Assembly: GCA_012960845.1 (NCBI GenBank)
Contig: DUAN01000189.1
Coordinates: 2,942-66,941, forward strand
DNA: 64,000 nucleotides
From: Planctomycetota bacterium
GTDB lineage: Bacteria > Planctomycetota > UBA8108 > UBA1146
Direction of reading: 5' to 3'
Part shown: positions 7,620 to 64,000 of the stretch, in pieces
Position numbering within the stretch: the stretch's first letter is position 1
Layout of the letters: every line of letters starts with the position of its first letter
Notes under the pieces: generated by a model
Told to the model about the DNA's origin: nothing
What the model saw: the letters and a program-made list of their open reading frames with translations, nothing else
Database searches by the model: none
Position numbers and translations under genes: made by a program

Positions 7620-7692
7620 GGCCCTGTAGCTCAGTGGATAGAGCACCGGCCTCCGAAGCCGGGTGTCGCACGTTCGAATCGTGCCAGGGTCG
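7620..7692 (+). tRNA. tRNA-Arg (anticodon CCG)
   Basis: Cloverleaf read by hand: acceptor GGCCCTG/CAGGGTC, D-arm GCTC-AGTGGATA-GAGC, anticodon stem CCGGC/GCCGG with loop CTCCGAA (anticodon CCG), T-arm GCACG-TTCGAAT-CGTGC; no encoded CCA. Confidence 0.9.
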
Positions 7693-12596: not shown

Positions 12597-12711
12597 ACTT
12601 CCGATCCGGGTTGCCCCGAATCAATCCTGTCACGGCTCTAGATACAGAACCTTTCACGACGGTTCAAGGGCCAACAGTTGAAATCCGTCAGATCCAGGCC
12701 GACAATGTGGC

Positions 12712-38378: not shown

Positions 38379-40604
38379 TCAGCGACGACCTCCGCGGTCG
38401 CCTCCGCGATCACGGCCTCCGCGGTCACGGCCTCCGCCACCACCACGATCGGGTCGTCCACGCTGGCCAGAATCTCCTGAAGCCACGGTGGCATCCAGTT
38501 TGCCTTCGTCGATGAGAACGGCCTTGTGGGAGAGTCGAAGTCGACCCTGTGGATCACTCTCGAGGACCTTGACCCTGAGAGAATCGCCACGCTTCACCAC
38601 CGAGGAAACGTCATCGACGAAGTCACCGGAAAGCTCCGAAACATGGACCAGGCCTTCCTGGCCCGGCAATACCTCGACGAAGCAGCCGAAGTCCTTGATC
38701 GAAACCACCTTGCCATCGTAGGTACGTCCCACTTCGACATCCTGAGTGATCATCTCGATCTGCTCACGAGCTTCGTTGGCACTGTCGTAATCTTTACCCC
38801 AGATGGTGATGACCCCGGAATCGACGATCTCGATGGTCGCACCGGTCGCTTCCTGGATTCCCTTGATCACCTTGCCACCAGGGCCGATCACCAGACCGAT
38901 CTTTTCGGGATCGATGTTGATACGCATGATCTTGGGCGCCAGCGGAGATACTTCATCCCGTGGACGATCCAACTTCTTGAGCATCTCACGAAGAATGTGC
39001 AATCGTCCCTCACGGGCCTGCTCGAGGGCACGTCCCATCAGTTCGCGACTGAGTCCAGAAATTTTCACATCCATCTGGAGAGCAGTGATTCCCTTCTGGG
39101 AACCCGCCACTTTGAAGTCCATGTCTCCGTTGTGGTCCTCACTGCCGAGGATGTCGGAGAGGATGTAATGATCACTTCCATCTTCGATCAATCCCATGGC
39201 GATTCCGGCGACCGGACGCTTGAGTGGTACTCCAGCGTCCATCAGTGCCAGCGTTCCACCACAGACACTCGCCATCGACGAGGATCCATTGGATTCCGTG
39301 ATGTCACTGACGATACGAATGGTGTAAGGGAAATCGTCGTGATCGGGAAGGATGTGACGGATGGATCTTTCTGCCAGGGCTCCATGGCCGATCTCTCGGC
39401 GCTTGGGGCCACGATTGGGCCATGATTCTCCGACACAGTATCCAGGGAAGTTGTAGTGCAGCATGAAGTGTTCTTTTTTCTCGTCGATCAGTCCATCAAC
39501 TCTCTGCTCGTCAAAGGATGTACCGAGAGTTGCAGTGACGATCGCCTGAGTCTCACCTCGGGTGAACAATGCCGAACCATGGGTTCTCGGTAGCAGTTGT
39601 AAATCCGTATCGATGTTGCGAATGTCGGTAAATGAACGGCCATCACTTCGCTTTTTGTCCTCGATGATGATGTCGCGCTCAACCTTTTTCTTGACCGATG
39701 AGAGAAACTTCTTGACCGCCTTCGGGTCGTTCTCGCAGGTTTCCGCTTCTAACTGGTCCTTCGGGCAGAGTTGCTCGAAGACATCATCGCAGACAGCAGA
39801 CATCGCATTGGATCGGGCGAACTTTCCATCGGTGTGAATCACCGCGCGGACACCGTCATAGGCCATCGAAAAGACCTTGGACTTCAACTCCTCGTCCACC
39901 TCTGGAGCCACGAACTCGATCTTCGGCTTACCAGCAAGTTTGGCAAACTCGGACACCATCGAAACCACCTCGATGGAGACCGCGTGGGCTTTTTCCAAAG
40001 CATCGATCATCTCGGCTTCAGCCACTTCCTTGGCTCCAGCTTCGACCATCACGATTGCGTCTTCAGTTCCTGCAACCACCAGATCGATATCACCCTGATC
40101 ACGCTGTTGATGGGTCGGGTTGATGACCAGTTCTCCATCCACTCGCCCGATTCGGACCGCTCCGATGGGGCCCTGGAAGGGCAACTCCGAGATGGAGAGT
40201 GCCGAGGAGGCGGCGATCATCGCCAGGATATCTGGATCGTTCTCACGATCTGCGGAAAGAACCGCCACCGTCACCATCACGTCCTTCATGTATCCATCCG
40301 GGAACAGAGGACGCACCGGGCGGTCGATCAGCCTGGAAGTCAGCACTTCCTTGGTCGTCGGACGACCTTCACGCTTGAAGAATCCACCTGGGATTTTTCC
40401 TGCAGCGTAGTTATTCTCTCGATAATCGACCGTCAAGGGGAAGAAGTCTCCGCCCCAGCGGGGTTCGCCCCAGGTCACTGCGCAGAAAACCGCGCAATCG
40501 CCGCAGCGAACGATGGTCGAACCTGCCGCTTGCTTCGCAATTTCTCCGGTTTCGATACTGATGGTACGACCACCAATCTCCCGGCTAACAATATGTTTCA
40601 TCAA
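38379..40604 (-). CDS. pnp: polynucleotide phosphorylase (PNPase) with RG-rich C-terminal tail
   Basis: Two RNase PH domains, KH and S1 domains in canonical order; rpsO immediately upstream. Confidence 0.95.
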   Translation of the reverse strand: MMKHIVSREIGGRTISIETGEIAKQAAGSTIVRCGDCAVFCAVTWGEPRWGGDFFPLTVDYRENNYAAGKIPGGFFKREGRPTTKEVLTSRLIDRPVRPLFPDGYMKDVMVTVAVLSADRENDPDILAMIAASSALSISELPFQGPIGAVRIGRVDGELVINPTHQQRDQGDIDLVVAGTEDAIVMVEAGAKEVAEAEMIDALEKAHAVSIEVVSMVSEFAKLAGKPKIEFVAPEVDEELKSKVFSMAYDGVRAVIHTDGKFARSNAMSAVCDDVFEQLCPKDQLEAETCENDPKAVKKFLSSVKKKVERDIIIEDKKRSDGRSFTDIRNIDTDLQLLPRTHGSALFTRGETQAIVTATLGTSFDEQRVDGLIDEKKEHFMLHYNFPGYCVGESWPNRGPKRREIGHGALAERSIRHILPDHDDFPYTIRIVSDITESNGSSSMASVCGGTLALMDAGVPLKRPVAGIAMGLIEDGSDHYILSDILGSEDHNGDMDFKVAGSQKGITALQMDVKISGLSRELMGRALEQAREGRLHILREMLKKLDRPRDEVSPLAPKIMRINIDPEKIGLVIGPGGKVIKGIQEATGATIEIVDSGVITIWGKDYDSANEAREQIEMITQDVEVGRTYDGKVVSIKDFGCFVEVLPGQEGLVHVSELSGDFVDDVSSVVKRGDSLRVKVLESDPQGRLRLSHKAVLIDEGKLDATVASGDSGQRGRPDRGGGGGRDRGGRDRGGDRGGRR

Positions 40605-44197: not shown

Positions 44198-45058
44198 CTA
44201 GGTGGTCAAATCGGGCCCCTCAACGACATCGTGGCAGAAGGAGCCATCCGACGTTTCGGCAATATCGACGCTGCGGAAAGATGTCGGTCTTCCCGAGGAG
44301 GGGTCGACCGTGAGCAACACGCCACAGAGGTGAGCATTCTTTTCGGCAACCGTGAAGGGAGCATGCATCGAAGTGAGAAACTTGTGAAGTACCGGCTTCG
44401 CGTCGCGCCCGATGACTCCATCGTAGGGCCCGGTCATTCCCATATCGGTAAGATAACCGGTTCCTCCCGGGAGGATTCTCGCATCGGCAGTCAGCACATG
44501 AGTGTGAGTGCCGACCACTGCTGTGACACGGCCATCGAAGTGCCATCCGGCAGCCTGCTTCTCGCTGGTCGCCTCTGCGTGGAACTCGACGATACGGATC
44601 TTCACCTCTTCGGGGATTTCCTTCAGAACTGCATCGACGGTGCGGAATGGACAAGAGACCAAGTCCATGAAGACTCGTCCCAGAACGATGACGTGAGCCA
44701 CCGGCACTCCAGCGGCGGTCTCCACCACTGACCATCCCGTGCCCAGAGCCTCGTCAGGGTAATTGTGAGGGCGCAGGCAGAGTGGTTCTTTCTCCAGCAC
44801 TTCGAGGTTATCCCTGCGTTTCCACGCATGATCCCCGAGCGTCATCAGGTCGATCCCAGCTGTTCGAAGATCGGCAAAGATCTTGGGAGTAATCCCTGAT
44901 CCCGCTGCAGAATTCTCGGCATTGGCGATGACCAGATCGAGATCGAGTGACTCCCGCAGGCCTGGCAGCATTCCTTGCACAATATTCCTGCCTGGCTTGC
45001 CGACGATATCACCGATCAGCAAGATTCGAATGTCGGAACCATCAGCGGGCATACTCAA
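44198..45058 (-). CDS. ymdB: YmdB-like metallophosphoesterase (2',3'-cyclic-nucleotide phosphodiesterase family, TIGR00282-like)
   Basis: ILLIGDIVGKPGR...NAENSAAG...GDH motifs; classic position downstream of rny. Confidence 0.85.
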   Translation of the reverse strand: MSMPADGSDIRILLIGDIVGKPGRNIVQGMLPGLRESLDLDLVIANAENSAAGSGITPKIFADLRTAGIDLMTLGDHAWKRRDNLEVLEKEPLCLRPHNYPDEALGTGWSVVETAAGVPVAHVIVLGRVFMDLVSCPFRTVDAVLKEIPEEVKIRIVEFHAEATSEKQAAGWHFDGRVTAVVGTHTHVLTADARILPGGTGYLTDMGMTGPYDGVIGRDAKPVLHKFLTSMHAPFTVAEKNAHLCGVLLTVDPSSGRPTSFRSVDIAETSDGSFCHDVVEGPDLTT

Positions 45059-46634
45059 CCACTCTGGTTTCCCGAATCAGTGTAATCTTGATCTCCCCGG
45101 GGTAGGTCAACTGGTCTTCAATCTGCTTGGCCACCTCGTGAGCCAATCGAACCGCCTTCTTGTCGTTGACCTTGTGCGCATTGACGAACACTCGCACCTC
45201 GCGGCCCGCTTGAATCGCCTGGGCGTTGGAGACACCCGCAAAGGAATTGACCAGTCCCTCCAGCTTCTCAAGGCGTTCAACATATCGATCGAGGGATTCC
45301 CCTCTCGCACCTGGACGGCTACCGCTGACCGAATCCGCAGCCTGGACCAGTACTGCATAGAGGCTCTCTTGCGGGACATCGTTATGGTGACTGGCGGCAG
45401 AGTTGACGACCTCCTTCGGCTCGTCGAACCTCTTGAGAATGGTCGCTCCGATTTCAGGATGCCCACCCTCGTACTGGTGGTCGACCGCCTTGCCGATGTC
45501 GTGAAATAGCCCACAGCGCTTTGCCAGATCCTGGTCGAGGCCGAACTCGGCAGCAATCATCCCGCAGATCTGAGCACACTCCACAGAATGGGAGAGCATG
45601 TTCTGGCCGTAGGACGTCCGGTACTTGAGTCGCCCCAGCATCGTCACCAGTTTGGGATGCACACCGGGAAGATCGAGGTCATAGGAGACCTGAACACCGG
45701 TCTTCTGGATCTCTTCGTTGAGTGACTTCTTCGCTTCCGCCACCACCTCTTCGATACGACTGGGATGGATCCGACCATCCGCCAGGAGTTTGTTGAGTGA
45801 ACGCCCCCCCATCTCACGCCGTATCGGATCGAAACAGGAGAGAGTGATCACTCCTGGACTATCATCGACGATCACATCGACTCCGGTGGCCTTTTCGAAT
45901 GCACGAATGTTGCGACCCTCACGGCCGATGATCCGACCTTTCATGTCGTCGGACGCAATCTCGACACTGGTGACGGTGGACTCCTGACAGTATGAGGATG
46001 AGATTCGCTGAAGGGTGGAGGCTAGAATATCTCTCGCCTTGGAGTCCGCTGTTTCCTTGACCCGTTCCACCATCCTCTGGATGAGGATATCTCCTTCATG
46101 TTCGACTTCTCGTTCCATCTTCTCGACCAGAGAGATGCGAGCTTCCTCTCGAGTCATGTCAGCAATCCGCTCGAGGCTCTCACGTTCCTGATCGAGGACC
46201 TCCTCCAGTTCTTCTTCTTTGGTGCGGATCTGCTGCTGTCTGTTGGTGAGAATGGTTTCCTCGGATTGGAGGCTGGATTCCTTCTTGGTCAGGAGAGCCA
46301 TCCGGCGCTCCAGACCATCCTCGCGCTTGCCCAGCTGGTTTTCGGACTCCTTGGTCTCATCCCGCAGATCACGTTGCTGCTGGAGGACATCGCTACGCTG
46401 GTGCTTGACCCAATCCTGGGTCTCCTCGCGGGTGTCCTTGCGGATCCTGTCCGCCTCCGCACGGGCTTCATCGAGCAAGACGCGGCGCTCTTCGCGTATT
46501 CGAGCTTGAGATCGTTGGGTCATGATGGCAATCACCACCAATGCAACCACGATCAGCCCCGCAGAGATGAACATCGCATTCTTGGTGGCATCGACCTGCA
46601 ACAGGACCGGAGCCAGTGAAAGTAAATTATACAA
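45042..46634 (-). CDS. rny: ribonuclease Y (N-terminal TM, KH and HD domains); TTG start with GGGAGGAA SD
   Basis: TM AMFISAGLIVVALVVIAIM, KH GREGRNIRAFE, HD HSVECAQICGMIAAEFG...FHDIGK. Confidence 0.9.
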   Translation of the reverse strand: MYNLLSLAPVLLQVDATKNAMFISAGLIVVALVVIAIMTQRSQARIREERRVLLDEARAEADRIRKDTREETQDWVKHQRSDVLQQQRDLRDETKESENQLGKREDGLERRMALLTKKESSLQSEETILTNRQQQIRTKEEELEEVLDQERESLERIADMTREEARISLVEKMEREVEHEGDILIQRMVERVKETADSKARDILASTLQRISSSYCQESTVTSVEIASDDMKGRIIGREGRNIRAFEKATGVDVIVDDSPGVITLSCFDPIRREMGGRSLNKLLADGRIHPSRIEEVVAEAKKSLNEEIQKTGVQVSYDLDLPGVHPKLVTMLGRLKYRTSYGQNMLSHSVECAQICGMIAAEFGLDQDLAKRCGLFHDIGKAVDHQYEGGHPEIGATILKRFDEPKEVVNSAASHHNDVPQESLYAVLVQAADSVSGSRPGARGESLDRYVERLEKLEGLVNSFAGVSNAQAIQAGREVRVFVNAHKVNDKKAVRLAHEVAKQIEDQLTYPGEIKITLIRETRVVEYAR

Positions 46635-51860: not shown

Positions 51861-53456
51861 TCAGTCTCCCGGATTATCGGGATTCAACTTGTTATCCACC
51901 TTCATGTCGGTGTAGGTGCCGCCAGTCTCCTCGGCGAGCCTTTTCAACCAGCTGTTGGCCTGGGCCAAGCCCGGCATCTGTTGCCCCCCCTGAGTGAAGG
52001 GGTGAAAGCCAAAACAATGGATCTTGATCTTGCGGAACCGGTTCAACTCGAAAACCTTGTCGAGAATCGGACTGGTCGGGTCCTTTACCTTGCCATCCTT
52101 TGATGGAAGTCCATCAGAGAGGAAGAAGATGGTGTTGGTTCGTGGATCCTGCATGAACGCCTCGACCAGTGCGTCCAGGGTGTTGGTATTGCCGTTGTGC
52201 TTGATTCCATCGACCCACTTCAAAGCCGACCTCTTGTTGCCGGTGCTGGCGGGAGTCGCCTTCTTCTTGAACTTGCTGACGGTGGTGTCGAAGCGGACGC
52301 AATTGAAGGCTGCATCCTTCGACATCTTCTTCAGCACCTTGCGCAATTCTCGCTTGGCCATCTCCATCCGGCTCCAGAACTTGGCGAGACGGATCTGTTC
52401 CTGGGTCATCTGACCACCACCGGAGGATCCTCCCCCGTCGGAGCCGTCTCCTCGACCGAGCCCAGGAATATCATCCTTGTGGACATACCGCATCGATCCG
52501 GAGGTATCGATGACGAAGACGATGTTCTTTGACTCGACCGGAACGCCCCAGAATTCGGGGTCATTACCACGGCGCTTGCGCTTGACTCCGGTCTTTCCGT
52601 CGTGGGTCTCCTCCATCGGGTCAAAGGTGTCCTGACGCGGCTCCCACCACGAGTGCCACTCCTCGATCAGATCGAAGTCCTGTCCGGTCAACTCCCACAG
52701 TGAATCTCGCACCTGGTGGTAGAGCACGTCCTTGCGTTTCTTGACCAGCTTCTCCAGCAGTTTGATCATCGGTTCGACGCCGATGGCACTCTGGCTCTTG
52801 CGAAAACCCTCCACCGCAGCTCCCTGGACAAAGGCGGACTTGTCCTCGAGAAAGGAGCACAGCAGTTTCAAGGCGTCGTCATTGTCGATCCCTCGCAGCC
52901 GCTGCAATTGCTTTTTCAGTGCCTCTTGCTGCTGCTTCAACCGATCGGGAATCCCTGGATCGGCACCGGGAGGCAATCCATCATCTTCGATCTCCTGGAG
53001 CCTCTTGCCCAGTTTCATGATCTCGTCATTGATCTTCCCGCGCTTGTTTGTGGGGAAGGAGAGGATGTCGGTCAGATAGACGCGCTCGCGGAAATCGCTT
53101 TTGCTGCGCAGTTTTTTGTAACGTTCGGTGATGAAATCGACGCAACCATCCATACGAGACAGTTCCTCACAGATGGTGCTGTAGACCGTTGGATTCCGTC
53201 CATCCTTGAAGCCCAGATCGTACAGCGTATCGACCGAATCCTCGGTACCGTAGGCAGCGATCTGCCGGACGATATCGATGGCGTTATCGGTGTTCTCGCC
53301 CTGGAGCGCCCTGCGAAAGCTCTTGGCCAGTTTCTTGATCTCTTTCGAATCGGCAGCACTGGACGCTTCCAGCACGGCGAAGGAAAAGATTCCGCACACC
53401 ATTGTGATCCACAGAAGAGCCAGTGAACCTCTGGTTGTACGATTTTGGTAGATCAT
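51861..53456 (-). CDS. secreted HEAT-repeat / VWA (MIDAS) domain protein, paralog of 1250..3079; start at MIYQNRTTRGSLALLWITMVCGIF with GGAGGA SD
   Basis: HEAT-like repeats, WHSWWEP motif, VWA NIVFVIDTSGSM, TIFFLSDGLPS. Confidence 0.75.
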   Translation of the reverse strand: MIYQNRTTRGSLALLWITMVCGIFSFAVLEASSAADSKEIKKLAKSFRRALQGENTDNAIDIVRQIAAYGTEDSVDTLYDLGFKDGRNPTVYSTICEELSRMDGCVDFITERYKKLRSKSDFRERVYLTDILSFPTNKRGKINDEIMKLGKRLQEIEDDGLPPGADPGIPDRLKQQQEALKKQLQRLRGIDNDDALKLLCSFLEDKSAFVQGAAVEGFRKSQSAIGVEPMIKLLEKLVKKRKDVLYHQVRDSLWELTGQDFDLIEEWHSWWEPRQDTFDPMEETHDGKTGVKRKRRGNDPEFWGVPVESKNIVFVIDTSGSMRYVHKDDIPGLGRGDGSDGGGSSGGGQMTQEQIRLAKFWSRMEMAKRELRKVLKKMSKDAAFNCVRFDTTVSKFKKKATPASTGNKRSALKWVDGIKHNGNTNTLDALVEAFMQDPRTNTIFFLSDGLPSKDGKVKDPTSPILDKVFELNRFRKIKIHCFGFHPFTQGGQQMPGLAQANSWLKRLAEETGGTYTDMKVDNKLNPDNPGD

Positions 53457-53684
53457 GATTCCTCCATCGGCACCCTTGGCGGGGTGCTCTCTTGACGAAT
53501 GAGACTCGCGATCGGGACTGGATCGGAGTACGGGCCCAGGAAGCCACCTTCCGGGCACTCTCAAGGTATCATGCCTCCTTCTTCAGTTCCATCGTCTAGG
53601 ATCTGGAGGAATATGGGCTTATGGGTGACGAATTGGCTCGATTTGCTTATCTTGGACCAACACCAACATGCCCTGGAGGAACAG

Positions 53685-54449
53685 ATGTCCCAGCACCAAG
53701 ACGACACCGATCGCCAGTACCATATCGGTCTCTCCCGGGGAGATGCCGCAGCAAAGATCTTGCTCGCCGGAGATCCCGAACGAGTGCGACGCAGCGCCGC
53801 TCGACTCGATAGTATCGAGGGCGAATGGAGCTGTCGCGAATATCTGACCATCACCGGAGAATGGCGTGGTGAGCGGGTGACCCTGATGGCCACCGGCATC
53901 GGCGCCAGCAACATCGAGATCGCGATGGTCGAACTGGCCGCCATCGTCGACGATCCGGTACTGATCCGAGCAGGCTCCTGTGGCGGTATAGACCCGAAGA
54001 TTCAGCTGGGTGATCTGGTGGTCAGCTGGGGGGCGGTACGGATGGAGAATACCTCCACCACCTTCGTTCCCGAGGGTTACCCCAGCGTCTCTCATCCGGA
54101 TGTGATCCAGGCACTACTGCAGCAAGCGCGCCAGAAGGAGTACCCGGTCCACCTCGGGATCACCGCCACCGCACCCGGTTTCTACGGCGCCCAGGGGCGA
54201 AATGTGAATGGATTCCCTCCACGCCACCCCGACGTGATCGAGGAGCTGGCCCGCATCGGTGTCGCCAACATGGAGATGGAGGCTTCGGCGCTCTTCACAC
54301 TGGCCTCGGTGAAGGGATGGAGAGCGGGGTGCGTTTGCACCGTCTTTGGCCGTCGACATCACGATGAATTTGTCCCGGTCGCCGAAAAACCGGCACTGGA
54401 AGATCGCTGCGTCGAGGTGGCACTCGACGCACTGCTGAGCATCGACTGA
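53685..54449 (+). CDS. udp: uridine phosphorylase
   Basis: Strong similarity to E. coli Udp: YHIGLSRGD...ILLAGDPERV...TGIGASNIEIAMVELAA...RAGSCGGI...NMEMEASALFTLA; GGAGGA SD 7 nt upstream of chosen ATG. Confidence 0.85.
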   Translation: MSQHQDDTDRQYHIGLSRGDAAAKILLAGDPERVRRSAARLDSIEGEWSCREYLTITGEWRGERVTLMATGIGASNIEIAMVELAAIVDDPVLIRAGSCGGIDPKIQLGDLVVSWGAVRMENTSTTFVPEGYPSVSHPDVIQALLQQARQKEYPVHLGITATAPGFYGAQGRNVNGFPPRHPDVIEELARIGVANMEMEASALFTLASVKGWRAGCVCTVFGRRHHDEFVPVAEKPALEDRCVEVALDALLSID

Positions 54450-54458
54450 GACGAGGGA

Positions 54459-55361
54459 TTACCCGGGTTTGACCTGCGGCGGATCGGGGTCCAGCGTAGA
54501 GATGGCCGCATCCACGATCCGCAGCAATCGTCCGCGCGATCTGCGCCCCGTCTCCATCACCTCTTCATGACTCAGCGGCTGCCCCGACATCCCCGCCGCC
54601 AGGTTGGTCACCAGCGAAAATCCTTGTACACGAAGGCGGCAATCCACCGCCACCATCGCTTCCTGGATGGTCGACATGCCGACCAGGTCTGCGCCGAGTT
54701 TGCGCAGCATCCGCACCTCCGCAGGGGTCTCGTAGGTGGGTCCTGGCAGACCTGCGTAATTTCCACGGGGGAAGCCATCGCTCGCTCCAGCATCGGAATC
54801 GTTGCGATAGCACAACTCGGTTCGATCGATCCAGTGCTGGTCGAAGAGACTGGCCTGCTGGCGGATCCGCGAGGCGGCCTCGATTCCCATCCTCGGTGTC
54901 ACCCCCTGCAGGTTGATATGATCCTCGATGGCGACCACTTCTCCGGGACTCCAGCCCTCACGGATGCCACCGGCGGCATTGGTCAGGATCAATCCTCGGG
55001 CACCGAGGGCTGCGAGTACGCGGATTCCCCGCACCACCTCTTCCACATCGTATCCCTCATACAGATGAACCCGGCCACCGAGCAGAAGTATCGTCGATCC
55101 TCCGACCTCGCCGAGGATCCACTCACCCCCATGCCCGGCCACCGAGGGAGCTGGCATCCCGGGAATGTCGCGAACTGCAATGCGGCAATATTCAGTCCAG
55201 CCATCGGCGGGAAACTGGATCCCGGAACCGAGCACGATCCCCACATCGGGACCGACTTCCGACCAGTCCTGCTCGCCATCGTGCGTCAGTTCGTGCGCCA
55301 ACTCGCACCACTGATCGCGAATCCATCGACAAGCCGCCTCGACATCGAATCGTTCCGTCAT
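54459..55361 (-). CDS. punA: purine nucleoside phosphorylase (PunA/PNP-I family)
   Basis: HLYEGY, LILTNAAGG, EDHINL, GLPGPTYETPAE, GADLVGMSTIQEAMVA, FSLVTN motifs. Confidence 0.8.
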   Translation of the reverse strand: MTERFDVEAACRWIRDQWCELAHELTHDGEQDWSEVGPDVGIVLGSGIQFPADGWTEYCRIAVRDIPGMPAPSVAGHGGEWILGEVGGSTILLLGGRVHLYEGYDVEEVVRGIRVLAALGARGLILTNAAGGIREGWSPGEVVAIEDHINLQGVTPRMGIEAASRIRQQASLFDQHWIDRTELCYRNDSDAGASDGFPRGNYAGLPGPTYETPAEVRMLRKLGADLVGMSTIQEAMVAVDCRLRVQGFSLVTNLAAGMSGQPLSHEEVMETGRRSRGRLLRIVDAAISTLDPDPPQVKPG

Positions 55362-58168
55362 TGCATGACGATTCCGGCAACGCAACCTGTCATCAGCGCC
55401 GCGACGGTGCCCCCGACCAGTGCTCTCAATCCCAAGGAGGAGAGTCGCGGTCGCAAGGAAGGCTCGAGCGACGAGATTCCACCGATCTGGATCGCCACAC
55501 TGGCAAAATTGGCGAAGCCACAGAGGGCATAGGTGGTGATGGCGCGAGAGCGATCACTGAGAGTGTCGACCCCGGAGAGTTCGATAAAGGCCACGAACTC
55601 GTTGAGCACCGTCTTCATTCCGATCAGCGAAGCGACCGCTGGCACATCCTTGAAGTCGACCCCCAGCAACCAGGCAAATGGATAGAAGATCCAACCGAAG
55701 ACATCTTGCAGGTTGAAGTAGGGTGATTCCGCCAGCACGGCGTGATCTCCCTGGCTCACCATATTTACCAAGGAGAGTGCCCAGTAGGAGATGTGCTGGG
55801 TCAACCAGGCGAGCGACGCATTGGCCAGTGCCACGATGGCCACGAATGCGATCAACATCGCGATGACATTGAGTGCCAGGATCAACCCTTCACTGGTTCC
55901 TCGACAGGCAGCATCGAGCAGATTGGAGTCGGAACGGTGGATCTCCAGTTTGGCTGCAGTGGGGTCACCTAGTTCCTTCTTCTCGGGGACCATCAACTTG
56001 GCCGCCACCAAGGCCGCAGGCGCCGACATGAAACTGGCCGCCAGCAGGTGACCGGCGTCAATTCCAAGACTGACATAGGCGGCAAAGACACTCCCCGCCA
56101 CGGTCGCCATACCTCCTGTCATCAATGCCATCACCTCGGAGTTGGTCATCTTTTTCAGGTAGGGACGGATCACCAGTGGCGCCTCGGTCTGTCCGGCGAA
56201 GATGTTGGCCGCAGCGGCGAGAGATTCAGGACCACTGGTCTTCATCGTCATCTGCATCAAACGAGCGATCAGCCACACGACGATCTGCAGCAATCCGATG
56301 TGATAGAAGATCGCCATCAATGCCGAGACGAAGATGATGGTCCCGAGCAAGACGATCCACAGCTGGAATCCAACACCGGTCGCCGACGACAAGGTGCCGA
56401 AGACCATGGCGGTCCCGACCTGGGAGAAGTCGAGGATCCCCTGAAAGATCTCCTTGGCAGCAGAGGTGAAGGAAGTGCCCCAATCGGTTCGCAGGATCAC
56501 CAACGCCAGCAGCAGTTGCAGCCCCACCCCCCAGTACACCGTACGCCAGCGAACTTCATTACGACGGGTCGAAATCGCCCAGCAGAGTGTGACCAGAACC
56601 AGCAGGCCCAGCAGACTGCGGGCACGATCGAGCCAGTGGGCCCCCCCTGCTCCATCGGCCGATGATGAGAGGTAAACCTCCTCCTGGATGGAGGCATAGA
56701 TCCGATCGGCGGAGTCCGCCTTCTCCAGCGCCCGCTCGGTCGCTTCCAGCACCGACAATCCACCATCCTCCCTGGGAGCGGCCGCTAGCAGATCCCAGCC
56801 ATCCCCGCCGCTGGCAAGGTAATCGTTGGTGGCGATGCGAAATTGCTGTTGATCGGTAATCGGGGCGCCCTGGAGAAGGATCTGTTCGACTTCGACCGGA
56901 CCTCCGTCCGCCTCCGCCACCTGCACCCGAATGCCGTGGAAGTCGACTCCTCTTCCCTCGGTGGTGAGCGACTGGACGACCAGTTGCTTCAACTGCTTGC
57001 CGGTCAAGGTCACCACGGTCACGCGATTGCCAAAGGGCGAGATCTCGAAGAGATCGCGGTACAGCACCTCTCCAGAAGGCAAGTCGTCACGGATTCCACC
57101 ATGATTGTGGAAGGATGCGGAGACACCTGCCGCTTCCGCCATCGAATCACAGATCCAGCGACCCAGTGGCGAGGAGAACGCTCCACTCTCCTTGTGCCCC
57201 CCACTGTGTAAAGCCTCCGGGGATTCTCCCACCTTGCGATTCATCTTCTCGCCGACCGTGGCATTCACCGCAGCGAGCAGAGATTTCAATTTCGGATCGG
57301 TCGCAACGGAGAGGGCTTCGACAGCCACCACCGACGTGGAAACGGTGACGGACTTGCCCTTGCGTGAGAATTCGATGCGCCCGAGATGGCGAGTCTTGGC
57401 TCCGACCTGGGCTACCACCGTGCCATGCACTGGTTCCACCCATGGTGGATCGACCAGGGTATGGGAGTGCCCGCCGACGATGAGGTCGATACCCTCGACT
57501 TCTCCGGCGAGCGGTCTTTCCAGCTTCACTCCGCTATGAGAGAGCACCACCAGCAGATCGGCGCCCTGTTGCCGGAGGCGATCTCTCGCCTTTCTCACCG
57601 CGTCGGCCAGCGGCGCCACCTGTAACTTTTTGCCCACCGCAGGAGCGATGATGTTGGGCGCATCCGGTGTCAAGATTCCGATCAACCCGACCCGAAAGCC
57701 ACCGCGCTCGATGATGTGGTCGCGCAGTAGCACCTGTTGAAGGCGTCCCGAAGACTCGGTCACATTCGATGCGATCACCGGAATGGACGTGGCATTGATC
57801 AGATTCAGCAAATTGTCGATGCCATAATCGAAATCGTGGTTGCCCAGGGTCGTGGCATCGAACTGGAGGCACTCCATCGCTCGGATCATCTGAAGGCCGC
57901 CGTCGCTGGCGCCTTCTGGAGTACCCTGGAACCAGTCGCCAGCGTCGAGCAGCAATACATTCTCGCTACCCACCTCATCGCGTACCGACGAGACCAGTTG
58001 GCTCAACCCGGCCATTCCACCACTGAGATTCTCGCCACTTTTTCGAGGGAGCAACTGTCCATGCATGTCGTTGACGTGCAGTACCACCAGATGATCATCG
58101 GCCTGAACAAATACAGCGCACCAGAGACTGATCAGCACCAGCCAGCCTTGAATCGATCGCAAGATCAT
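55358..58168 (-). CDS. fusion protein: secreted 5'-nucleotidase/UshA-like metallophosphatase (N-terminal ~510 aa) + NupC/concentrative nucleoside transporter (C-terminal ~420 aa)
   Basis: Signal peptide; VLHVNDMHG, GGHSHT, 5'-nucleotidase C-domain NHGGIRDDL; then CNT motifs (FYPFAWLLGV, SNEFVAF, CGFANFASVAIQIGGISSLEP) with multiple TM helices in one ORF. Confidence 0.8.
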   Translation of the reverse strand: MILRSIQGWLVLISLWCAVFVQADDHLVVLHVNDMHGQLLPRKSGENLSGGMAGLSQLVSSVRDEVGSENVLLLDAGDWFQGTPEGASDGGLQMIRAMECLQFDATTLGNHDFDYGIDNLLNLINATSIPVIASNVTESSGRLQQVLLRDHIIERGGFRVGLIGILTPDAPNIIAPAVGKKLQVAPLADAVRKARDRLRQQGADLLVVLSHSGVKLERPLAGEVEGIDLIVGGHSHTLVDPPWVEPVHGTVVAQVGAKTRHLGRIEFSRKGKSVTVSTSVVAVEALSVATDPKLKSLLAAVNATVGEKMNRKVGESPEALHSGGHKESGAFSSPLGRWICDSMAEAAGVSASFHNHGGIRDDLPSGEVLYRDLFEISPFGNRVTVVTLTGKQLKQLVVQSLTTEGRGVDFHGIRVQVAEADGGPVEVEQILLQGAPITDQQQFRIATNDYLASGGDGWDLLAAAPREDGGLSVLEATERALEKADSADRIYASIQEEVYLSSSADGAGGAHWLDRARSLLGLLVLVTLCWAISTRRNEVRWRTVYWGVGLQLLLALVILRTDWGTSFTSAAKEIFQGILDFSQVGTAMVFGTLSSATGVGFQLWIVLLGTIIFVSALMAIFYHIGLLQIVVWLIARLMQMTMKTSGPESLAAAANIFAGQTEAPLVIRPYLKKMTNSEVMALMTGGMATVAGSVFAAYVSLGIDAGHLLAASFMSAPAALVAAKLMVPEKKELGDPTAAKLEIHRSDSNLLDAACRGTSEGLILALNVIAMLIAFVAIVALANASLAWLTQHISYWALSLVNMVSQGDHAVLAESPYFNLQDVFGWIFYPFAWLLGVDFKDVPAVASLIGMKTVLNEFVAFIELSGVDTLSDRSRAITTYALCGFANFASVAIQIGGISSLEPSLRPRLSSLGLRALVGGTVAALMTGCVAGIVMQ

Positions 58169-58291
58169 GCCACCTCTATTTCCACCTGGAGAATTGCTGG
58201 AGAGGATAGCGGAACAATCCTCGTCTGGACAGCGGGAGCCCTTGCAACCGACCCCTGCTTTCCTTCATGATCTGAGCAAAGGAGAGTCATC

Positions 58292-59695
58292 ATGGACCCA
58301 GTGGAACTTCCCGAGCGAATCTTCAGAACCTATGACATCCGTGGCATCGTTGGAGAAGACCTGACCGAGGAGATCGTCGAACGGATCGGACTCGGTCTGG
58401 GCCAATTACTCTCCTCCGAGGGGAGCCGCTCTGTCGCCGTCGGCCACGATATCCGCGATTCCAGTGCGCCCTTTGCCGCGCGAGTCCGAGATGGCCTGCT
58501 GAAAGCTGGACTCGATGTCATCGAGGTGGGAGAGGTTCCGACTCCCTTGCTCTACTGGGCGGTCCAGCACCTGGGTGCCGATGGTGGAGTGATGATCACC
58601 GGCAGCCACAATCCGGTCGAGTACAACGGACTGAAGATCACCCGCGGTGTGATGCCGATCTGGGGGGATGAACTGCAGACTCTTCGCAACATCGCCAACG
58701 CTGCTCGTGCGGTCGAGACTCCAGGCCAGGCGACTTCCGCCGAGGTGATCCAGCCTTACATCGCCAACCGGACCGAGCGCTTCCAGTTCCCCGACGGATT
58801 CAAGGTCGCCATCGATTGCGGCAATGGCACGGCAGGACCGGTCGCCATTCCACTCTTTGAAGCACTCGGGATCGAGGTGGACGCCCTTTACCCCGAGCCG
58901 GATGGTACCTTTCCCAATCACCTTCCCGACCCGGAAGTTCCTCGCTACATGAAGAACCTATGTGACAAGGTTGCGGCTGGAGATTTCCAGTGTGGCTTCG
59001 GCTTCGACGGTGACTCCGATCGAGTCGGAGTGATCGATGAGAAGGGCAGGAAAAGATCCGCTGACCATCTGCTGGTCGCCTTCGCTCGACACCTGCTCGC
59101 CCAGGTCCCCGGTGGCAAGATCATCTACGATGTCAAATGCTCCGACTACTTGCCCGAGCTGATCGAAAAAGCCGGAGGAGTACCGATACTCAGCAAAACG
59201 GGCCACTCCATCATCAAGGAAAAGATGAAGGAGACGGGAGCGATTCTCGCAGGCGAACTGTCGGGGCACATCTGTGTGAAACACGGTGGAGATGGCTTCG
59301 ATGACGCCTTCTTTGCCGCCTTACTGACACTCGAGATCATCGCTTCTCAGGGCGGCCAATGTTCCGACCTGTTCGACGGGATCCCCGAGATGGAGGCGAC
59401 CCCGGAGGTCAAGATTCCAGTCTCGGAAGCACACAAGTTCCAGGTGATCGCTGCGCTGGTTGAGCAATTCCGGGATGATTCCTGCGGCGGTACCCTGATC
59501 GATCTCGATGGAGTCCGGCTCTCCTTCGACGATGGTTGGATGTTGATCCGTGCATCCAATACGACGGCCAATTTGACGGTTCGAGTCGAAGGAGTCGACA
59601 ACGACGCACTGCAACGAATCGGGTCGATCGTCCGCCAGGCGCTCGAGTCGCACCCGGTCGATCTCGACCAGTTGACCGAGGCGCTCGAATCCTGA
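58292..59695 (+). CDS. phosphomannomutase/phosphoglucomutase (alpha-D-phosphohexomutase superfamily)
   Basis: Active-site TGSHNP motif, four-domain length; AAAGGAGAG RBS. Confidence 0.85.
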   Translation: MDPVELPERIFRTYDIRGIVGEDLTEEIVERIGLGLGQLLSSEGSRSVAVGHDIRDSSAPFAARVRDGLLKAGLDVIEVGEVPTPLLYWAVQHLGADGGVMITGSHNPVEYNGLKITRGVMPIWGDELQTLRNIANAARAVETPGQATSAEVIQPYIANRTERFQFPDGFKVAIDCGNGTAGPVAIPLFEALGIEVDALYPEPDGTFPNHLPDPEVPRYMKNLCDKVAAGDFQCGFGFDGDSDRVGVIDEKGRKRSADHLLVAFARHLLAQVPGGKIIYDVKCSDYLPELIEKAGGVPILSKTGHSIIKEKMKETGAILAGELSGHICVKHGGDGFDDAFFAALLTLEIIASQGGQCSDLFDGIPEMEATPEVKIPVSEAHKFQVIAALVEQFRDDSCGGTLIDLDGVRLSFDDGWMLIRASNTTANLTVRVEGVDNDALQRIGSIVRQALESHPVDLDQLTEALES

Positions 59696-60662: not shown

Positions 60663-61792
60663 GTGCCATTCTCCTCGGCCAGTATTTTCCAGGACAGCGC
60701 CGGAAACGCATCGTTGCCAGGTGACAAATCGACACCGTGACCTGATCTCTGTTCATCCAGGGTAACGGATCCTCCATCGAATTCGATCCCACCGACAAAA
60801 GGATGCTCCCGGATGAACAGCGGTGTGTCGAGATCGATCCAGCGCACCCCACCGAGTCCCCGGGCCAGGTGTGCTGAGAAAGACATCGAGAGCAGTGACT
60901 CGACCATCCCGCCCATCATCAGCGAGATCCCTGCGGCGGTGGCGATCTGGTGGATTCGAATCGCTTCCAGCACGCCGCACTTCTGCGTCTTGATATTGAT
61001 GACATTGGCCAGTCGGTGCTGAACGATTCGCATCGCATCGGCAGCACTCTTGCACGATTCATCGGCACAGATCGCCACCTGACCGAGGGCGGTCAATCGA
61101 GCCATTCCCGCCTCGTCCTCCTGTGGCACCGGTTGTTCCAGCATATCGATCGGGATTCGCTCGGCGAGAGCCTTCTCGATCAGTTGCTGCGCCTCGGCCG
61201 CCTCGTAGCCACCGTTGGCATCGAGTACCAGTCCACAGTCGGGTGCCGCACGAGAGATCATCTCGAGTCGCTGCAGATCGTGATCGAGACCGTCGCGCCC
61301 CACCTTGATCTTGAGTGTCTTGAATCCAGCGGCGCTCGCTTCGCTGGCGGATCGAGACGCGTGGTCGAGATCTCCGGCGACGATGGTCAGATCGGTGACG
61401 AGAGAAGCGTTGGCTGAGCCAACAAAGCGATGGAGCGGACACTGCTGCTGACGAGTGAATCCATCGAGCGCCGCCATCTCGAGGGCACAAAGGGCGCTCG
61501 AGGAACCCGGAGCCGCCTCGATGGTGGTCTGTTGAATTTGATGAGAAAGGAGAGGGTCCAGTCCGATCAGAGCAGGTGCGGCTGTCGCCAATGCCTCCAG
61601 CGCTGCAGTCCGTGTCTGGCCATCGTAGGCGGGGAAGGGGGCCGCCTCACCAAGCCCCACCGTCCCATCCGACAGTTCCATTCGCACCAGGGTCAGATCG
61701 ACTCGACTCGATTCGCCACCAGAGATGGCGAATGGCTCCTTCAGTTGAAGATCGAGGGGAGCAGCCTCGATCTTGACGATGCGCCGGCTCAT
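60659..61792 (-). CDS. enolase-superfamily enzyme (mandelate racemase/muconate lactonizing enzyme subgroup; dipeptide epimerase/OSBS-like)
   Basis: KIKVG, LVLDANGG, EQP, ADESC, IDLD metal-ligand motif series. Confidence 0.75.
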   Translation of the reverse strand: MSRRIVKIEAAPLDLQLKEPFAISGGESSRVDLTLVRMELSDGTVGLGEAAPFPAYDGQTRTAALEALATAAPALIGLDPLLSHQIQQTTIEAAPGSSSALCALEMAALDGFTRQQQCPLHRFVGSANASLVTDLTIVAGDLDHASRSASEASAAGFKTLKIKVGRDGLDHDLQRLEMISRAAPDCGLVLDANGGYEAAEAQQLIEKALAERIPIDMLEQPVPQEDEAGMARLTALGQVAICADESCKSAADAMRIVQHRLANVINIKTQKCGVLEAIRIHQIATAAGISLMMGGMVESLLSMSFSAHLARGLGGVRWIDLDTPLFIREHPFVGGIEFDGGSVTLDEQRSGHGVDLSPGNDAFPALSWKILAEENGT

Positions 61793-63030
61793 TGCGATAC
61801 CCAGGCCCCGTTCACCAGCAATGGCACCTCGTCGCCGGAAGTGGTGACAGCGGTCACATTTACCTCCTCGTTACTGATCATCATGTCGGTATGAGCGGTC
61901 GAAGAATTCCAACCGATCGCCTCCAACTGCTCGGGAGTCATCTCCACTCCACCTTCGAGACAGGTCTTGTAGGCATTGCCTACCGCAACATGACAGGCAG
62001 CATTCTCATCGAGCAGGATTTCGCGGAATACATGGCCGCTCTGAAATACCGGTGAATCGATACCCACCAGCGCCACCTCGCCCAGTCGCCTCGCCCCGGG
62101 ATCGCTGTCGATGTAGGAGCGGAAGGTCTCGCCACCATTCTGTGCGCTGAAGTCGCTCAGAACTCCATCTTTGAACTCGATGGTGAGCCCCTCCACCAGG
62201 GTCCCGTTGACCAGAAACGGTCTCGTCACCTGTGCGGTGCCCTCGGTCATGCGGTAATCGGGAGTGGTGAATACCTCTTCCGTGGGAAGATTGGGAATGA
62301 ACTCTTGACCTCTTTGACTGATGGCACCACCGCCTTCGAAGCGAGCGGCCTGCGAAAGCCCAACGGTCAGATCAGTTCCCGGCCCGTTGAACCGCAACCG
62401 TTCAATCTTCAGTTCATTGAGTGCTTTTCCACGACTCTTGAGCTGGCGATTGTGCTCTTCCCACGCGCCAAGACAATCTTCCCGATCAGCCCGTACGATG
62501 GTCAGGAGTTGTTTCCAGAGTTCGTCCCTGGCGGCAACTCCATCGAGATGATCGAAGATCGATTCCGCCCAGCCGATGGTCGCCGCAGAGGCGACACACC
62601 ATTGCACTGCAGATCTTCCAATTCCATCATCATAAAAGCGTGTAGCGGCCTTGTGCCCGGCGATACGACAGCGATTGATTCGATCCGCATCGAGACCAGA
62701 AAGAGCTTCAGGATCGGAAGTACCGACCAGCCGCAACATCGCTCCCTGCTCCTCCACCGCCTCATCAAAGCGGACCGGTAAACTGCGGGGAATATGGTCG
62801 AGGAACTCTTCCTGTTGCGAATGCAAGATGCGGGAGCGTTGGATCCGATCGTCTCCCAGGTCGACATGAACAAATCGTGCCCCCGCCTGGTAAGCCGCCT
62901 CCACCACCTTGATGGCAAAATCTCTCGATTCAGCGTCCGCACCCAGATAAAGCGATTGCCCCGGCTGGATGTTGCAGCCTTTTCGGATGATCAACTCGGC
63001 GTAACGTTCCAGGGCCACTTCATGGTTCAT
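61789..63030 (-). CDS. aminopeptidase, peptidase M29 (AmpS/PepS family); start at MNHEVALERYAELIIRKG with GGAGG SD (longer ORF would run through tRNA-Pro)
   Basis: N-terminal YAELIIRKGCNIQPGQSL motif typical of M29; length ~410 aa. Confidence 0.8.
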   Translation of the reverse strand: MNHEVALERYAELIIRKGCNIQPGQSLYLGADAESRDFAIKVVEAAYQAGARFVHVDLGDDRIQRSRILHSQQEEFLDHIPRSLPVRFDEAVEEQGAMLRLVGTSDPEALSGLDADRINRCRIAGHKAATRFYDDGIGRSAVQWCVASAATIGWAESIFDHLDGVAARDELWKQLLTIVRADREDCLGAWEEHNRQLKSRGKALNELKIERLRFNGPGTDLTVGLSQAARFEGGGAISQRGQEFIPNLPTEEVFTTPDYRMTEGTAQVTRPFLVNGTLVEGLTIEFKDGVLSDFSAQNGGETFRSYIDSDPGARRLGEVALVGIDSPVFQSGHVFREILLDENAACHVAVGNAYKTCLEGGVEMTPEQLEAIGWNSSTAHTDMMISNEEVNVTAVTTSGDEVPLLVNGAWVSQ

Positions 63031-63122
63031 TCGAAGACCTCCACTTTCCGGATTCAAAAAAGGTAACCGATGGTCTGCCCCAGCGGGAGGCTGCAAAAGA
63101 TAATGGACCAGGAGGTGAAGCA

Positions 63123-63145
63123 GCCGTGCAGCCTTGCTGCACGGC
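63123..63145 (-). terminator. 9-bp stem-loop (GCCGTGCAG-CCTTG-CTGCACGGC) just 3' of tRNA-Pro
   Basis: Perfect inverted repeat read directly. Confidence 0.4.
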
Positions 63146-63155
63146 CGAAGATTAT

Positions 63156-63232
63156 TGGTCGGGGTGAGAGGATTTGAACCTCCGGCCTCCACGTCCCGAA
63201 CGTGGCGCTCTACCAAACTGAGCCACACCCCG
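63156..63232 (-). tRNA. tRNA-Pro (anticodon CGG), CCA encoded
   Basis: Minus-strand cloverleaf: acceptor CGGGGTG/CACCCCG, D-arm GCTC-AGTTTGGTA-GAGC, anticodon stem CCACG/CGTGG loop TTCGGGA, T-arm GGAGG-TTCAAAT-CCTCT, ACCA 3' end. Confidence 0.9.
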
Positions 63233-63444: not shown

Positions 63445-64000
63445 TCAGGGGTTGCAGCCGTAGCCGTTCGCCTGGTCCGGATCGAGACCCGCTTCCGGGA
63501 AGGGGGCCAGCGGCATCGGGCCACTGCGGAACAGATACGTGACGATGTAGATCGGATCTGCCAGATCGATCAGGGCGTCGCCATTGACCTCGCCCGCCTC
63601 CAGGCAGGCGGGAGCATCTCCGCCAGAAAAGAGGTAATAGGCCAGATACATCGCATCCCCGATGTCGAGTTGACTATCGCCATTGACCACTCCACGGATA
63701 AATCCGTAGGTAAAGGCTCCCGGCAATGTCGCCTCTCCCAGTGAATTGGCGACTCGAACATCGACCGCGCCGATGCCACTGATCGATGGCGGCAACAGAC
63801 CGGTCACGGTGTTGTCGTCGACCACGACCAGATCCAGCAGAACCACGCCGTCGATGGTGACCTCGGTATCGGACGCCGCGAGGAATCCAGATCCCGTCAC
63901 CTGTATGGCGATTCCACCCAGGTAGTGCCCGACCGTCGGAGAGACCCCCTCGGCGGTGACCGGGATGATCGAGGTGGTACAGATGGCGCTGACCACTTCA
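63445..64000 (-). CDS. 5'-partial secreted protein: IPT/TIG domain followed by the C-terminal dockerin-like module (N-terminus beyond window end)
   Basis: TEVTIDGVVLLDLVVVDDNTVTGLLPP IPT-like strand pattern; C-terminal VNGDSQLDIGDAMYLAYYLF...NGDALIDLADPIYIVTYLFRSGPMPLAPFPEAG...C. Confidence 0.6.
   Translation of the reverse strand, partial: EVVSAICTTSIIPVTAEGVSPTVGHYLGGIAIQVTGSGFLAASDTEVTIDGVVLLDLVVVDDNTVTGLLPPSISGIGAVDVRVANSLGEATLPGAFTYGFIRGVVNGDSQLDIGDAMYLAYYLFSGGDAPACLEAGEVNGDALIDLADPIYIVTYLFRSGPMPLAPFPEAGLDPDQANGYGCNP

Follow-up and report, generated by a model that had tools for sequence, protein, structure and literature searches.

The locus described here raises the question of whether one polypeptide joins a 5'-nucleotidase to a nucleoside transporter, or whether two genes have been run together by an error. 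It is located in a stretch of 64,000 nt (the window, a term used below for its full length; contig DUAN01000189.1, positions 2,942 to 66,941, of GenBank assembly GCA_012960845.1), and the host of the gene is a marine-type Planctomycetota bacterium. A first-pass annotation of the window had proposed a single open reading frame (ORF) joining a secreted 5'-nucleotidase to a nucleoside transporter, and this ORF was found exactly at 55358-58168 on the minus strand, with 936 codons. The gene and its parts are as follows (aa, residues of the fused protein; CNT, concentrative nucleoside transporter; TM, transmembrane segment; pLDDT, the local confidence score of the AlphaFold2 model):

55358..58168 (-): fused 5'-nucleotidase-CNT gene, 936 codons plus a TGA stop (ORF list; five Pfam domains above cut-off)
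58170..58177 (-): Shine-Dalgarno-like AGAGGTGG, ending 1 nt before the ATG of the fused gene
58100..58168 (-): predicted Sec-type signal peptide, aa 1-23, with the n-region MILRS, a hydrophobic core and a predicted cleavage site between VQA and DD
57269..58099 (-): metallophosphatase (dimetal) catalytic domain, aa ~24-300 (Pfam PF00149, motifs, pLDDT mostly >95)
56678..57268 (-): 5'-nucleotidase C-terminal substrate-binding domain, aa ~301-497 (Pfam PF02872, 106.8 bits)
56636..56677 (-): flexible tether, aa ~498-511, SSSADGAGGAHWLD, with low pLDDT, variable among homologs and holding a G7 run at 56641-56647
55361..56635 (-): CNT/NupC/SLC28 permease module, aa 512-936 (three Pfam CNT domains), with TM1 at aa 512-531

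All five Pfam matches of the fused protein exceeded their gathering scores, and they covered Metallophos (aa 28-237), 5_nucleotid_C (332-462), Nucleos_tra2_N (520-593), Gate (605-701) and Nucleos_tra2_C (707-932).

The G7 homopolymer lies inside the linker and is a plausible site of frameshift error, at about 56.6 kb, where the first-pass annotation had advised a check for a missed stop or frameshift. Together with a relative (locus L091) that truly has two genes, it would favour an error, either a frameshift from sequencing or assembly or an overlooked stop, as the origin of the single frame. However, among 5.8 billion clusters searched, 22 full-length or near-full-length proteins carried all five domains, at 95% to ~40% identity, and these fused homologs came from JGI, ENA, NCBI and Logan assemblies. 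In the alignment, 21 fused homologs were co-linear with the window protein over the junction, with conserved flanks and a linker variable in both length and sequence; overall, more than 20 fused protein clusters from independent assemblies, with identities from 95% down to ~35%, were co-linear at this point. The exact window protein was recovered on 12 contigs under three NCBI accessions, an 81%-identical homolog in 27 index blocks, and a 95%-identical homolog on 21 contigs. The last of these reads DGGKGAH where the window protein has DGAGGAH; its DNA differs at the homopolymer, and the frame is kept. In contrast to the split locus L091, the window junction lacks a stop codon, a start codon and a separate signal peptide or ribosome-binding site.

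The dN/dS ratios of the parts, each calculated against two homologs, were as follows, and the ratio over the whole fused gene was 0.12-0.13:

Signal peptide: 0.21-0.50
Metallophosphatase domain: 0.11-0.21
5'-nucleotidase C-domain: 0.08-0.13
Linker: 0.22-0.45, above both domains
CNT: 0.10-0.11

Since dN/dS is low in each half, both modules are kept by purifying selection in one reading frame. The co-linear homologs, the repeated recovery on contigs, the in-frame 95% homolog and the low dN/dS show that the reading frame is genuine, and a frameshift or missed stop at the G7 run was ruled out by the co-linearity and by the different, yet in-frame, DNA of the 95% homolog. The fused gene was thus confirmed to be real, and the chance that it is an assembly artefact is negligible. 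The first-pass annotation had also allowed that orthologs might always be split by a stop codon between the domains; instead, they are fused in more than 20 independent clusters, and one genuinely split locus (L091) was found.

As the first-pass annotation had proposed, a predicted signal peptide precedes the enzyme. The N-terminus of the fused protein, MILRSIQGWLVLISLWCAVFVQA followed by DD, has an n-, an h- and a c-region, and a hydropathy peak falls at aa 2-23; the call was made from this sequence pattern. In the alignment of the fused homologs, small residues at -3/-1 recur just ahead of the first beta-strand, and the dN/dS comparison marks the signal peptide as a fast-evolving region.

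In the enzyme half, PF00149 scored 40.2 bits (cut-off 21.5) and PF02872 scored 106.8 bits (cut-off 23.6), with the domains in family order. The motifs reported earlier for both domains were all present and invariant in the 22 aligned fused proteins, namely NDMHG (33), DAGD (75-78), GNHDFD (109-114), LSH (209-211) and GGHSH (232-236) in the metallophosphatase domain, and NHGGIR (355-360), PFGN (378-381) and GGDG (454-457) in the C-domain. The family signatures DxH, GD, GNH(D/E)xxD, H and GHxH are represented by D34/H36, D78, N110/H111/D114, H211 and H234/H236, again without variation in the 22 sequences; these dimetal and catalytic residues presumably correspond to those of UshA in its own numbering. 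The enzyme half matched the solved 5'-nucleotidases of Thermus (2Z1A, E=1e-41) and E. coli (c4898, 3IVD), as well as CD73 and UshA. An AlphaFold2 model of the fused protein was built from a 145-sequence alignment (mean pLDDT 90.8, mostly >90 across aa 25-497), and its enzyme part was compared with known structures by Foldseek. The TM-score was 0.82-0.84 (target-normalised) with 2Z1A and 3IVD and 0.77-0.81 with closed CD73, the likeness being to the closed and not the open conformers of CD73 and UshA; the NadN structure 3ZU0 was also among the matches. Judged by its motifs and profiles, the enzyme half is predicted to be a complete UshA/CD73-type member of the 5'-nucleotidase family. It may be called UshA-like, but it is no UshA ortholog, as the NCBIfam equivalog of E. 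coli UshA (NF007109) gave 165 bits against a cut-off of 600.

The transporter half is a complete CNT permease, in agreement with the first-pass annotation. Nucleos_tra2_N, Gate and Nucleos_tra2_C were matched in order with 78.6, 60.3 and 238.2 bits (cut-offs 27, 29.6 and 32.3), and the permease half aligned end to end with residues 11-421 of vcCNT (3TIJ, E=2.5e-80). The alignment with nwCNT (5L26) gave E=3.9e-79, while bovine and human CNT3 aligned from residue 224 or 134 on, that is, only past their three extra N-terminal TMs. The motifs AANIF (653), GQTEAP (659, hairpin HP1), NEF (856, hairpin HP2) and GFANFAS (884, TM7) line up with their vcCNT equivalents, and those of HP1, HP2 and TM7 are invariant in the 22 fused homologs. 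GQTEAP, NEF and FAN..S are taken here to form the nucleoside-binding site, as in the vcCNT structure. AANIF keeps its Asn, and GGLASIAG of vcCNT is aligned with GGMATVAG (Ser to Thr, Ile to Val); both features appear compatible with a cation site, for which they are not diagnostic.

Prokaryotic CNTs have an Nout-Cout topology (PMC4659628; bioRxiv 10.1101/2023.02.03.527023). Because the CNT N-terminus is periplasmic, an N-terminal passenger must be exported, and this explains the signal peptide. In the fused protein, TM1 is followed by RRNEVRWR (4 K/R versus 1 D/E), which fits the positive-inside rule and a first helix running from outside to inside. The signal peptide, the order of TM1 and RRNEVRWR, and the homology to vcCNT TM1 with its periplasmic N-terminus all agree, so that a topology check at the level of sequence predicts an Nout-Cout protein whose enzyme faces the periplasm. 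An engineered fusion of a signal sequence and HisMBP to NupC was expressed and retained uridine transport (PMC4659628), and a large periplasmic N-terminal domain is therefore compatible with CNT function. Since TM1 belongs to the static scaffold domain of CNTs (bioRxiv 10.1101/2023.02.03.527023), the passenger is not expected to hinder the elevator motion. The sole low-confidence stretch of the AlphaFold2 model was aa ~501-510 (pLDDT ~60, and <50 at 505-507). As the 5'-nucleotidase fold extends to about aa 497, the tether is only ~12-15 residues long.

The genes around the fusion are as follows:

54459..55361 (-): purine nucleoside phosphorylase (PNP), PunA/trimeric type (NCBIfam NF006054, 260 bits, cut-off 218)
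53685..54449 (+), within ORF 53499-54449: convergent uridine-phosphorylase-like PNP_UDP_1 gene (Pfam PF01048)
58292..59695 (+): PMM/PGM-family phosphosugar mutase, divergent, with 123 nt of intergenic DNA (four PGM_PMM Pfam domains)
51861-53564 (-): HEAT-repeat/VWA-domain protein, directly past the uridine phosphorylase gene at all syntenic loci

The adjacency to the two phosphorylase genes that had been noted for the ORF was thus found, with PNP at 54459-55361 (-) and the uridine-phosphorylase-like ORF at 53499-54449 (+). The ATG of the PNP gene overlaps the TGA of the fused gene (ATGA), which suggests translational coupling, and PNP overlaps or abuts the fused gene in loci L001, L004, L005, L006 and L093. 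The best NCBIfam match of the uridine-phosphorylase-like gene was TIGR01718, with 170.6 bits, under the cut-off of 280. Its probable start is M63 of the 53499 ORF, giving 254 aa as in the L001 ortholog, and its position is conserved at all syntenic loci. The order of PMM/PGM (divergent), fusion, PNP (overlapping or abutting), uridine phosphorylase (convergent) and HEAT/VWA is kept at loci whose fused proteins share 81, 46, 45 and 42% identity.

As controls, 80 unfused CNT loci spread over many phyla were taken from among the matches listed in a scan of genome contigs, nearly all of which were unfused CNTs. None of the 80 had a 5'-nucleotidase within 8 kb, and about a quarter had PNP directly 3' of the CNT gene. 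This pairing of CNT and PNP is widespread in unfused loci, and the enzyme therefore appears to have been added to a common arrangement in this lineage.

The PMM/PGM gene is divergently paired with the fusion or the CNT ortholog at every related locus, the split and domain-less ones included. The superfamily includes some phosphopentomutases (PMC11641776), and such an activity would complete nucleoside catabolism. The best PDB match was P. aeruginosa PMM/PGM (361 bits), against 136 bits for an archaeal phosphopentomutase of the same superfamily. With a bona fide classical PMM/PGM as the best match, the assignment as a phosphopentomutase was not adopted; the gene is a possible member of the module, and a phosphopentomutase role is speculative. 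In the intergenic region between this gene and the fusion, an alignment with four related loci gave a conserved block of GAGGTG plus the ATG. A conserved operator was also considered and rejected, as only the Shine-Dalgarno sequence and the ATG are conserved across the five aligned loci.

A secreted 690-aa Endonuclease_1 protein is encoded at L004:1545-3617 and L006:1301-3397, the loci of two distant relatives. It was discarded as a part of the module, since it lies three genes upstream in L004 and L006 and is absent from the window and L001. Its C-terminal domain of ~90 aa recurs in otherwise unrelated ORFs in the window (9640-9972, 11037-11249 and 63454-63711) and at other loci; with this distribution, a common role in sorting or anchoring is possible.

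The 5'-nucleotidase-CNT fusion family is a narrow, small lineage. An exhaustive HMMER scan of 1.84 billion representatives at 50% identity returned four full-length fused representatives (P0013, P0021, P0022 and P0240) and one junction-spanning fragment, and the fused members with a named organism are all Planctomycetota or Planctomycetes metagenome-assembled genomes. In P0022, an insertion of ~190 aa separates the nucleotidase from the CNT. Other CNT fusions were seen in the representative scan, namely P0285, in which the CNT is followed by a C-terminal cytidine/dCMP deaminase domain, and P0295, with an N-terminal BNR/Ycf48-like beta-propeller ahead of the CNT.

A search with the permease half revealed enzyme-less CNTs (P0121 and P0123-P0129; 457-486 aa) that are 70-73% identical to the CNT half of the window protein, nearer to it than many fused members. 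Their loci are fully syntenic (L087:8001-9389, L088, L089 and L090:3835-5220; proteins P0123 and P0129), with a gap of only ~140 nt between PGM and CNT and no nucleotidase. The proteins nevertheless keep a signal peptide and an acidic, Ser-rich linker of 30-50 residues, which places 59-80 residues ahead of TM1, compared with 0-8 in ordinary CNTs (n=73). In the neighbour-joining (NJ) tree of the permease half, the enzyme-less and the near fused proteins formed a clade in 100/100 bootstrap replicates that excludes a second group of fused proteins, P0013-P0022. The simplest reading is that the ancestor of the enzyme-less CNTs was a fused protein whose enzyme domain was secondarily deleted.

Locus L091:7001-10406 is truly split. 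Its 517-aa 5'-nucleotidase gene has a signal peptide of its own and ends in a TAG stop. A spacer of 154 nt, which holds a near-tandem repeat (GTTGAAAGTTGTCGAGTCG...), separates it from a CNT gene in a different frame, whose own ATG lies directly at TM1. The CNT of L091 is the sister of fused P0023 (100/100). In both P0023 and the L091 CNT (L091:8709-10406), TM2 is followed by a common hydrophobic insertion of ~150 aa, which may form additional membrane helices.

A divergent fused protein, P0240 (L092:1021-4280; 958 aa, ~35% identity), has a cytidine deaminase gene in place of PNP, with a 4-nt overlap. In the NJ tree, the enzyme half of P0240 falls among free nucleotidases, and the protein may therefore be an independent fusion. 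Monophyly of the family in the CNT NJ trees reached 17-66/100 and 0-47/100 in two runs, depending on the taxa counted. The 5'-nucleotidase halves were not strictly monophyletic in the NJ tree, as the free enzymes P0024 and P0060 intrude and P0240 falls elsewhere, and the deep nodes of the NJ trees were poorly supported. With the deep nodes and the enzyme halves in this state, a single fusion event is not claimed. The claim made here, read from the sequences, is that fusion, fission or loss has apparently occurred more than once; the fused, split (L091) and enzyme-deleted (L087-L090) states are all found at one syntenic locus. As expected of a Rosetta-stone fusion, the components are separate elsewhere, and the fused form is conserved with dN/dS of ~0.1-0.2 in both halves. 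Enzyme and CNT are adjacent genes in L091, and they are separate and unlinked in the 80 other CNT loci.

The fused protein probably carries out tethered, sequential dephosphorylation and uptake that feeds nucleoside phosphorolysis. This model draws on the architecture, the topological logic, the intact motifs, the conservation, the purifying selection and the synteny described here; from there we infer enzymatic activity, substrate range, coupling ion, trimeric state and any kinetic advantage or channelling. The Sec signal peptide would export the N-terminal part of an inner-membrane protein, and the exported part would fold in the periplasm as an active dimetal 5'-nucleotidase, tied by the linker of ~12-15 residues to TM1 of a concentrative (cation-coupled) nucleoside transporter. 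The CNT part is presumably trimeric, as in all CNTs. Nucleoside 5'-monophosphates that reach the periplasm, derived for instance from the breakdown of extracellular RNA or DNA, cannot cross the membrane. They would be dephosphorylated by the tethered enzyme, and the nucleoside, set free no more than a few nanometres from the outward-facing site of the CNT, would be imported by the cation gradient. In the cytoplasm, the coupled PNP and the adjacent uridine phosphorylase would cleave it to the base and (deoxy)ribose-1-phosphate, and the PMM/PGM neighbour may turn the ribose-1-phosphate product into ribose-5-phosphate. The fusion would fix a 1:1 stoichiometry and co-localisation at the cytoplasmic membrane, and it may limit diffusive loss of the product, a saving that could count where the periplasm is large, as in planctomycetes, and where the surroundings are dilute. 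In V. cholerae, the route through separate proteins, from periplasmic UshA to NupC, is established (PMC4714964).

The first-pass annotation had placed the dephosphorylation at the mouth of the transporter. This is topologically sound, given the periplasmic N-terminus of the CNT and the short tether; "mouth" and channelling are a further step, as the orientation of the modules is undefined. A stronger form of the model, in which the tether gives vectorial processing and the nucleoside made by the enzyme is captured by the CNT trimer far better than free external nucleoside, is tentative and on balance doubtful. If it held, the protein would work as a "nucleotide importer by dephosphorylation", comparable to group translocation but on the extracytoplasmic side, and the fused, split and deleted orthologs would be a ready-made evolutionary experiment on covalent enzyme-transporter coupling.

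Several observations weigh against the model of tethered dephosphorylation and uptake, or against its precise terms. The NCBIfam UshA score, far below its cut-off, is comparable to those of the NadN, CpdB-type and SoxB models. NCBIfam TIGR00804 (nupC) gave 394.9 bits against a cut-off of 442, with the match in two stretches, probably because of an insertion of ~25 residues around aa 800-825 in the alignment with vcCNT; this lowers the case for the NupC subfamily and leaves that for the CNT family. The halves are therefore called members of the CNT and 5'-nucleotidase families and not orthologs of NupC and UshA. Of the earlier labels, "UshA-like" holds as far as the 5'-nucleotidase family (PF00149 and PF02872 above gathering) and not for UshA orthology (165 versus 600 bits), and "NupC-type" likewise holds for the CNT family and falls short at the nupC subfamily cut-off. 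The mutual orientation of the two modules was undefined in the AlphaFold2 model (pTM 0.67). No nuclease or Pho-regulon gene was found near the fusion within the window. Finally, the fusion is not essential for the pathway, because close relatives have lost the enzyme domain or carry it as a separate gene.

That same separability lends itself to another view of the benefit, in which phosphate acquisition is the main gain, the phosphate freed being taken up by Pst or Pit and the CNT serving as a mere anchor without kinetic coupling. Relatives drop the enzyme module yet keep CNT, PNP and uridine phosphorylase, and V. cholerae needs its periplasmic 5'-nucleotidases to use nucleotides or extracellular DNA as a phosphate source (PMC4714964). 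However, the conserved neighbourhood contains no pst, pho or alkaline-phosphatase genes, the fusion joins the enzyme specifically to the carrier of the organic product, the ATGA overlap suggests translational coupling to PNP, and PNP commonly follows the CNT where no fusion exists. Phosphate acquisition as the main benefit is thus considered unlikely.

A main substrate other than the nucleoside 5'-monophosphates is considered quite unlikely. NAD or nicotinamide mononucleotide (NadN-like, giving nicotinamide riboside and adenosine), UDP-sugars, ATP/ADP, and 2',3'-cyclic or 3'-nucleotides would then be cleaved, and the CNT would import the matching riboside. The NCBIfam scores for UshA (165 bits), the multifunctional cyclic-nucleotide phosphodiesterase/nucleotidase (~161) and NadN (130) are alike and all far under their cut-offs, and NadN 3ZU0 is a structural match, whereas the best matches in both sequence and fold (2Z1A, 3IVD and CD73) are plain 5'-nucleotidases. 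The neighbours, moreover, are purine and pyrimidine nucleoside phosphorylases and not NAD salvage genes, and even the divergent fused P0240 precedes cytidine deaminase, an ordinary gene of nucleoside metabolism. Tethered binding domains are known in other transporter classes, but a catalytically dead nucleotidase-like domain acting as a nucleotide or nucleoside receptor, like a tethered substrate-binding protein, is highly improbable here in view of metal-ligand and catalytic motifs invariant in 22 sequences down to ~40% identity and a dN/dS of 0.1-0.2. Tethered dephosphorylation and uptake is accordingly the function preferred here.

Other features were noted in the window. A cobalamin riboswitch (RF00174, 70.8 bits) at 12465-12602 (-) overlaps the GTG annotated as the start codon of ORF 10968-12596, which probably begins further downstream. 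Two tRNA genes were found, at 63159-63232 (-) and 7620-7692 (+). Because the former overlaps the 5' extension of the M29 aminopeptidase ORF (longest ORF 61789-63228), that gene must start downstream; the Pfam match of the ORF starts at residue 72. PNPase and RNase Y, RNA-turnover genes at 38379-40604 (-) and 45042-46634 (-), lie 9-17 kb from the fusion; they are cytoplasmic housekeeping enzymes, and nothing ties either to the scavenging module.

No published description of a 5'-nucleotidase-CNT fusion was found in the full-text literature, a coverage outside which most subscription journals fall. In public databases, the fused proteins are labelled "hypothetical protein", "CNT family concentrative nucleoside transporter" or "5'-nucleotidase C-terminal domain-containing protein". 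With such labels, surveys seeking free periplasmic nucleotidases would undercount the scavenging of nucleotides and extracellular DNA by Planctomycetota. For the structural biology of CNTs, the protein is of use as a natural case of a large periplasmic passenger on TM1, a helix of the scaffold domain.

Among known systems, the separate UshA and NupC-type CNT of E. coli and V. cholerae perform the same steps in the same compartments with the same folds and motifs (PMC4714964). The window protein differs from that pair in that it is one polypeptide, its enzyme is tethered to the membrane and not soluble, the genes are not dispersed, and the enzyme is no UshA ortholog. In comparison with vcCNT, nwCNT and NupC (8 TMs, Nout-Cout), the permease half matches vcCNT over residues 11-421, with the binding motifs retained. 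The signal-sequence-HisMBP-NupC construct tolerates an artificial periplasmic N-terminal passenger and keeps transport (PMC4659628); unlike in that construct, the passenger here is natural and is itself an enzyme, one that acts on the precursor of what the CNT transports. Animal cells with CD73 and CNT or ENT carriers are a further parallel, in that a 5'-nucleotidase attached to the outer face of the membrane makes the nucleoside for uptake by a carrier. CD73 is a dimer held by a glycosylphosphatidylinositol lipid anchor, with no covalent link to the carrier, and any coupling is by proximity only. SulP anion transporters fused to carbonic anhydrase represent the same "transport metabolon" concept, in which a carrier is joined to an enzyme that produces or uses up the species it transports; in such examples the enzyme is cytoplasmic. 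The families here are different, and the enzyme is extracytoplasmic and acts before transport.

The closest comparison is with the orthologs at the same locus in related Planctomycetota, where homologous proteins are found in the order PGM, CNT, PNP and uridine phosphorylase. L091 has a separate 517-aa 5'-nucleotidase, L087-L090 have a signal peptide, an acidic linker and a CNT without the enzyme, and the window has the fusion. The kinetic advantage of placing an enzyme next to a transporter has usually been argued from loosely associated proteins, whereas the link here is covalent, and the fused, split and deleted series at one locus provides matched constructs with which channelling is directly testable. 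Both components and the pathway are textbook knowledge; the covalent combination, a Rosetta-stone extracytoplasmic enzyme-transporter unit, appears to be the new part.

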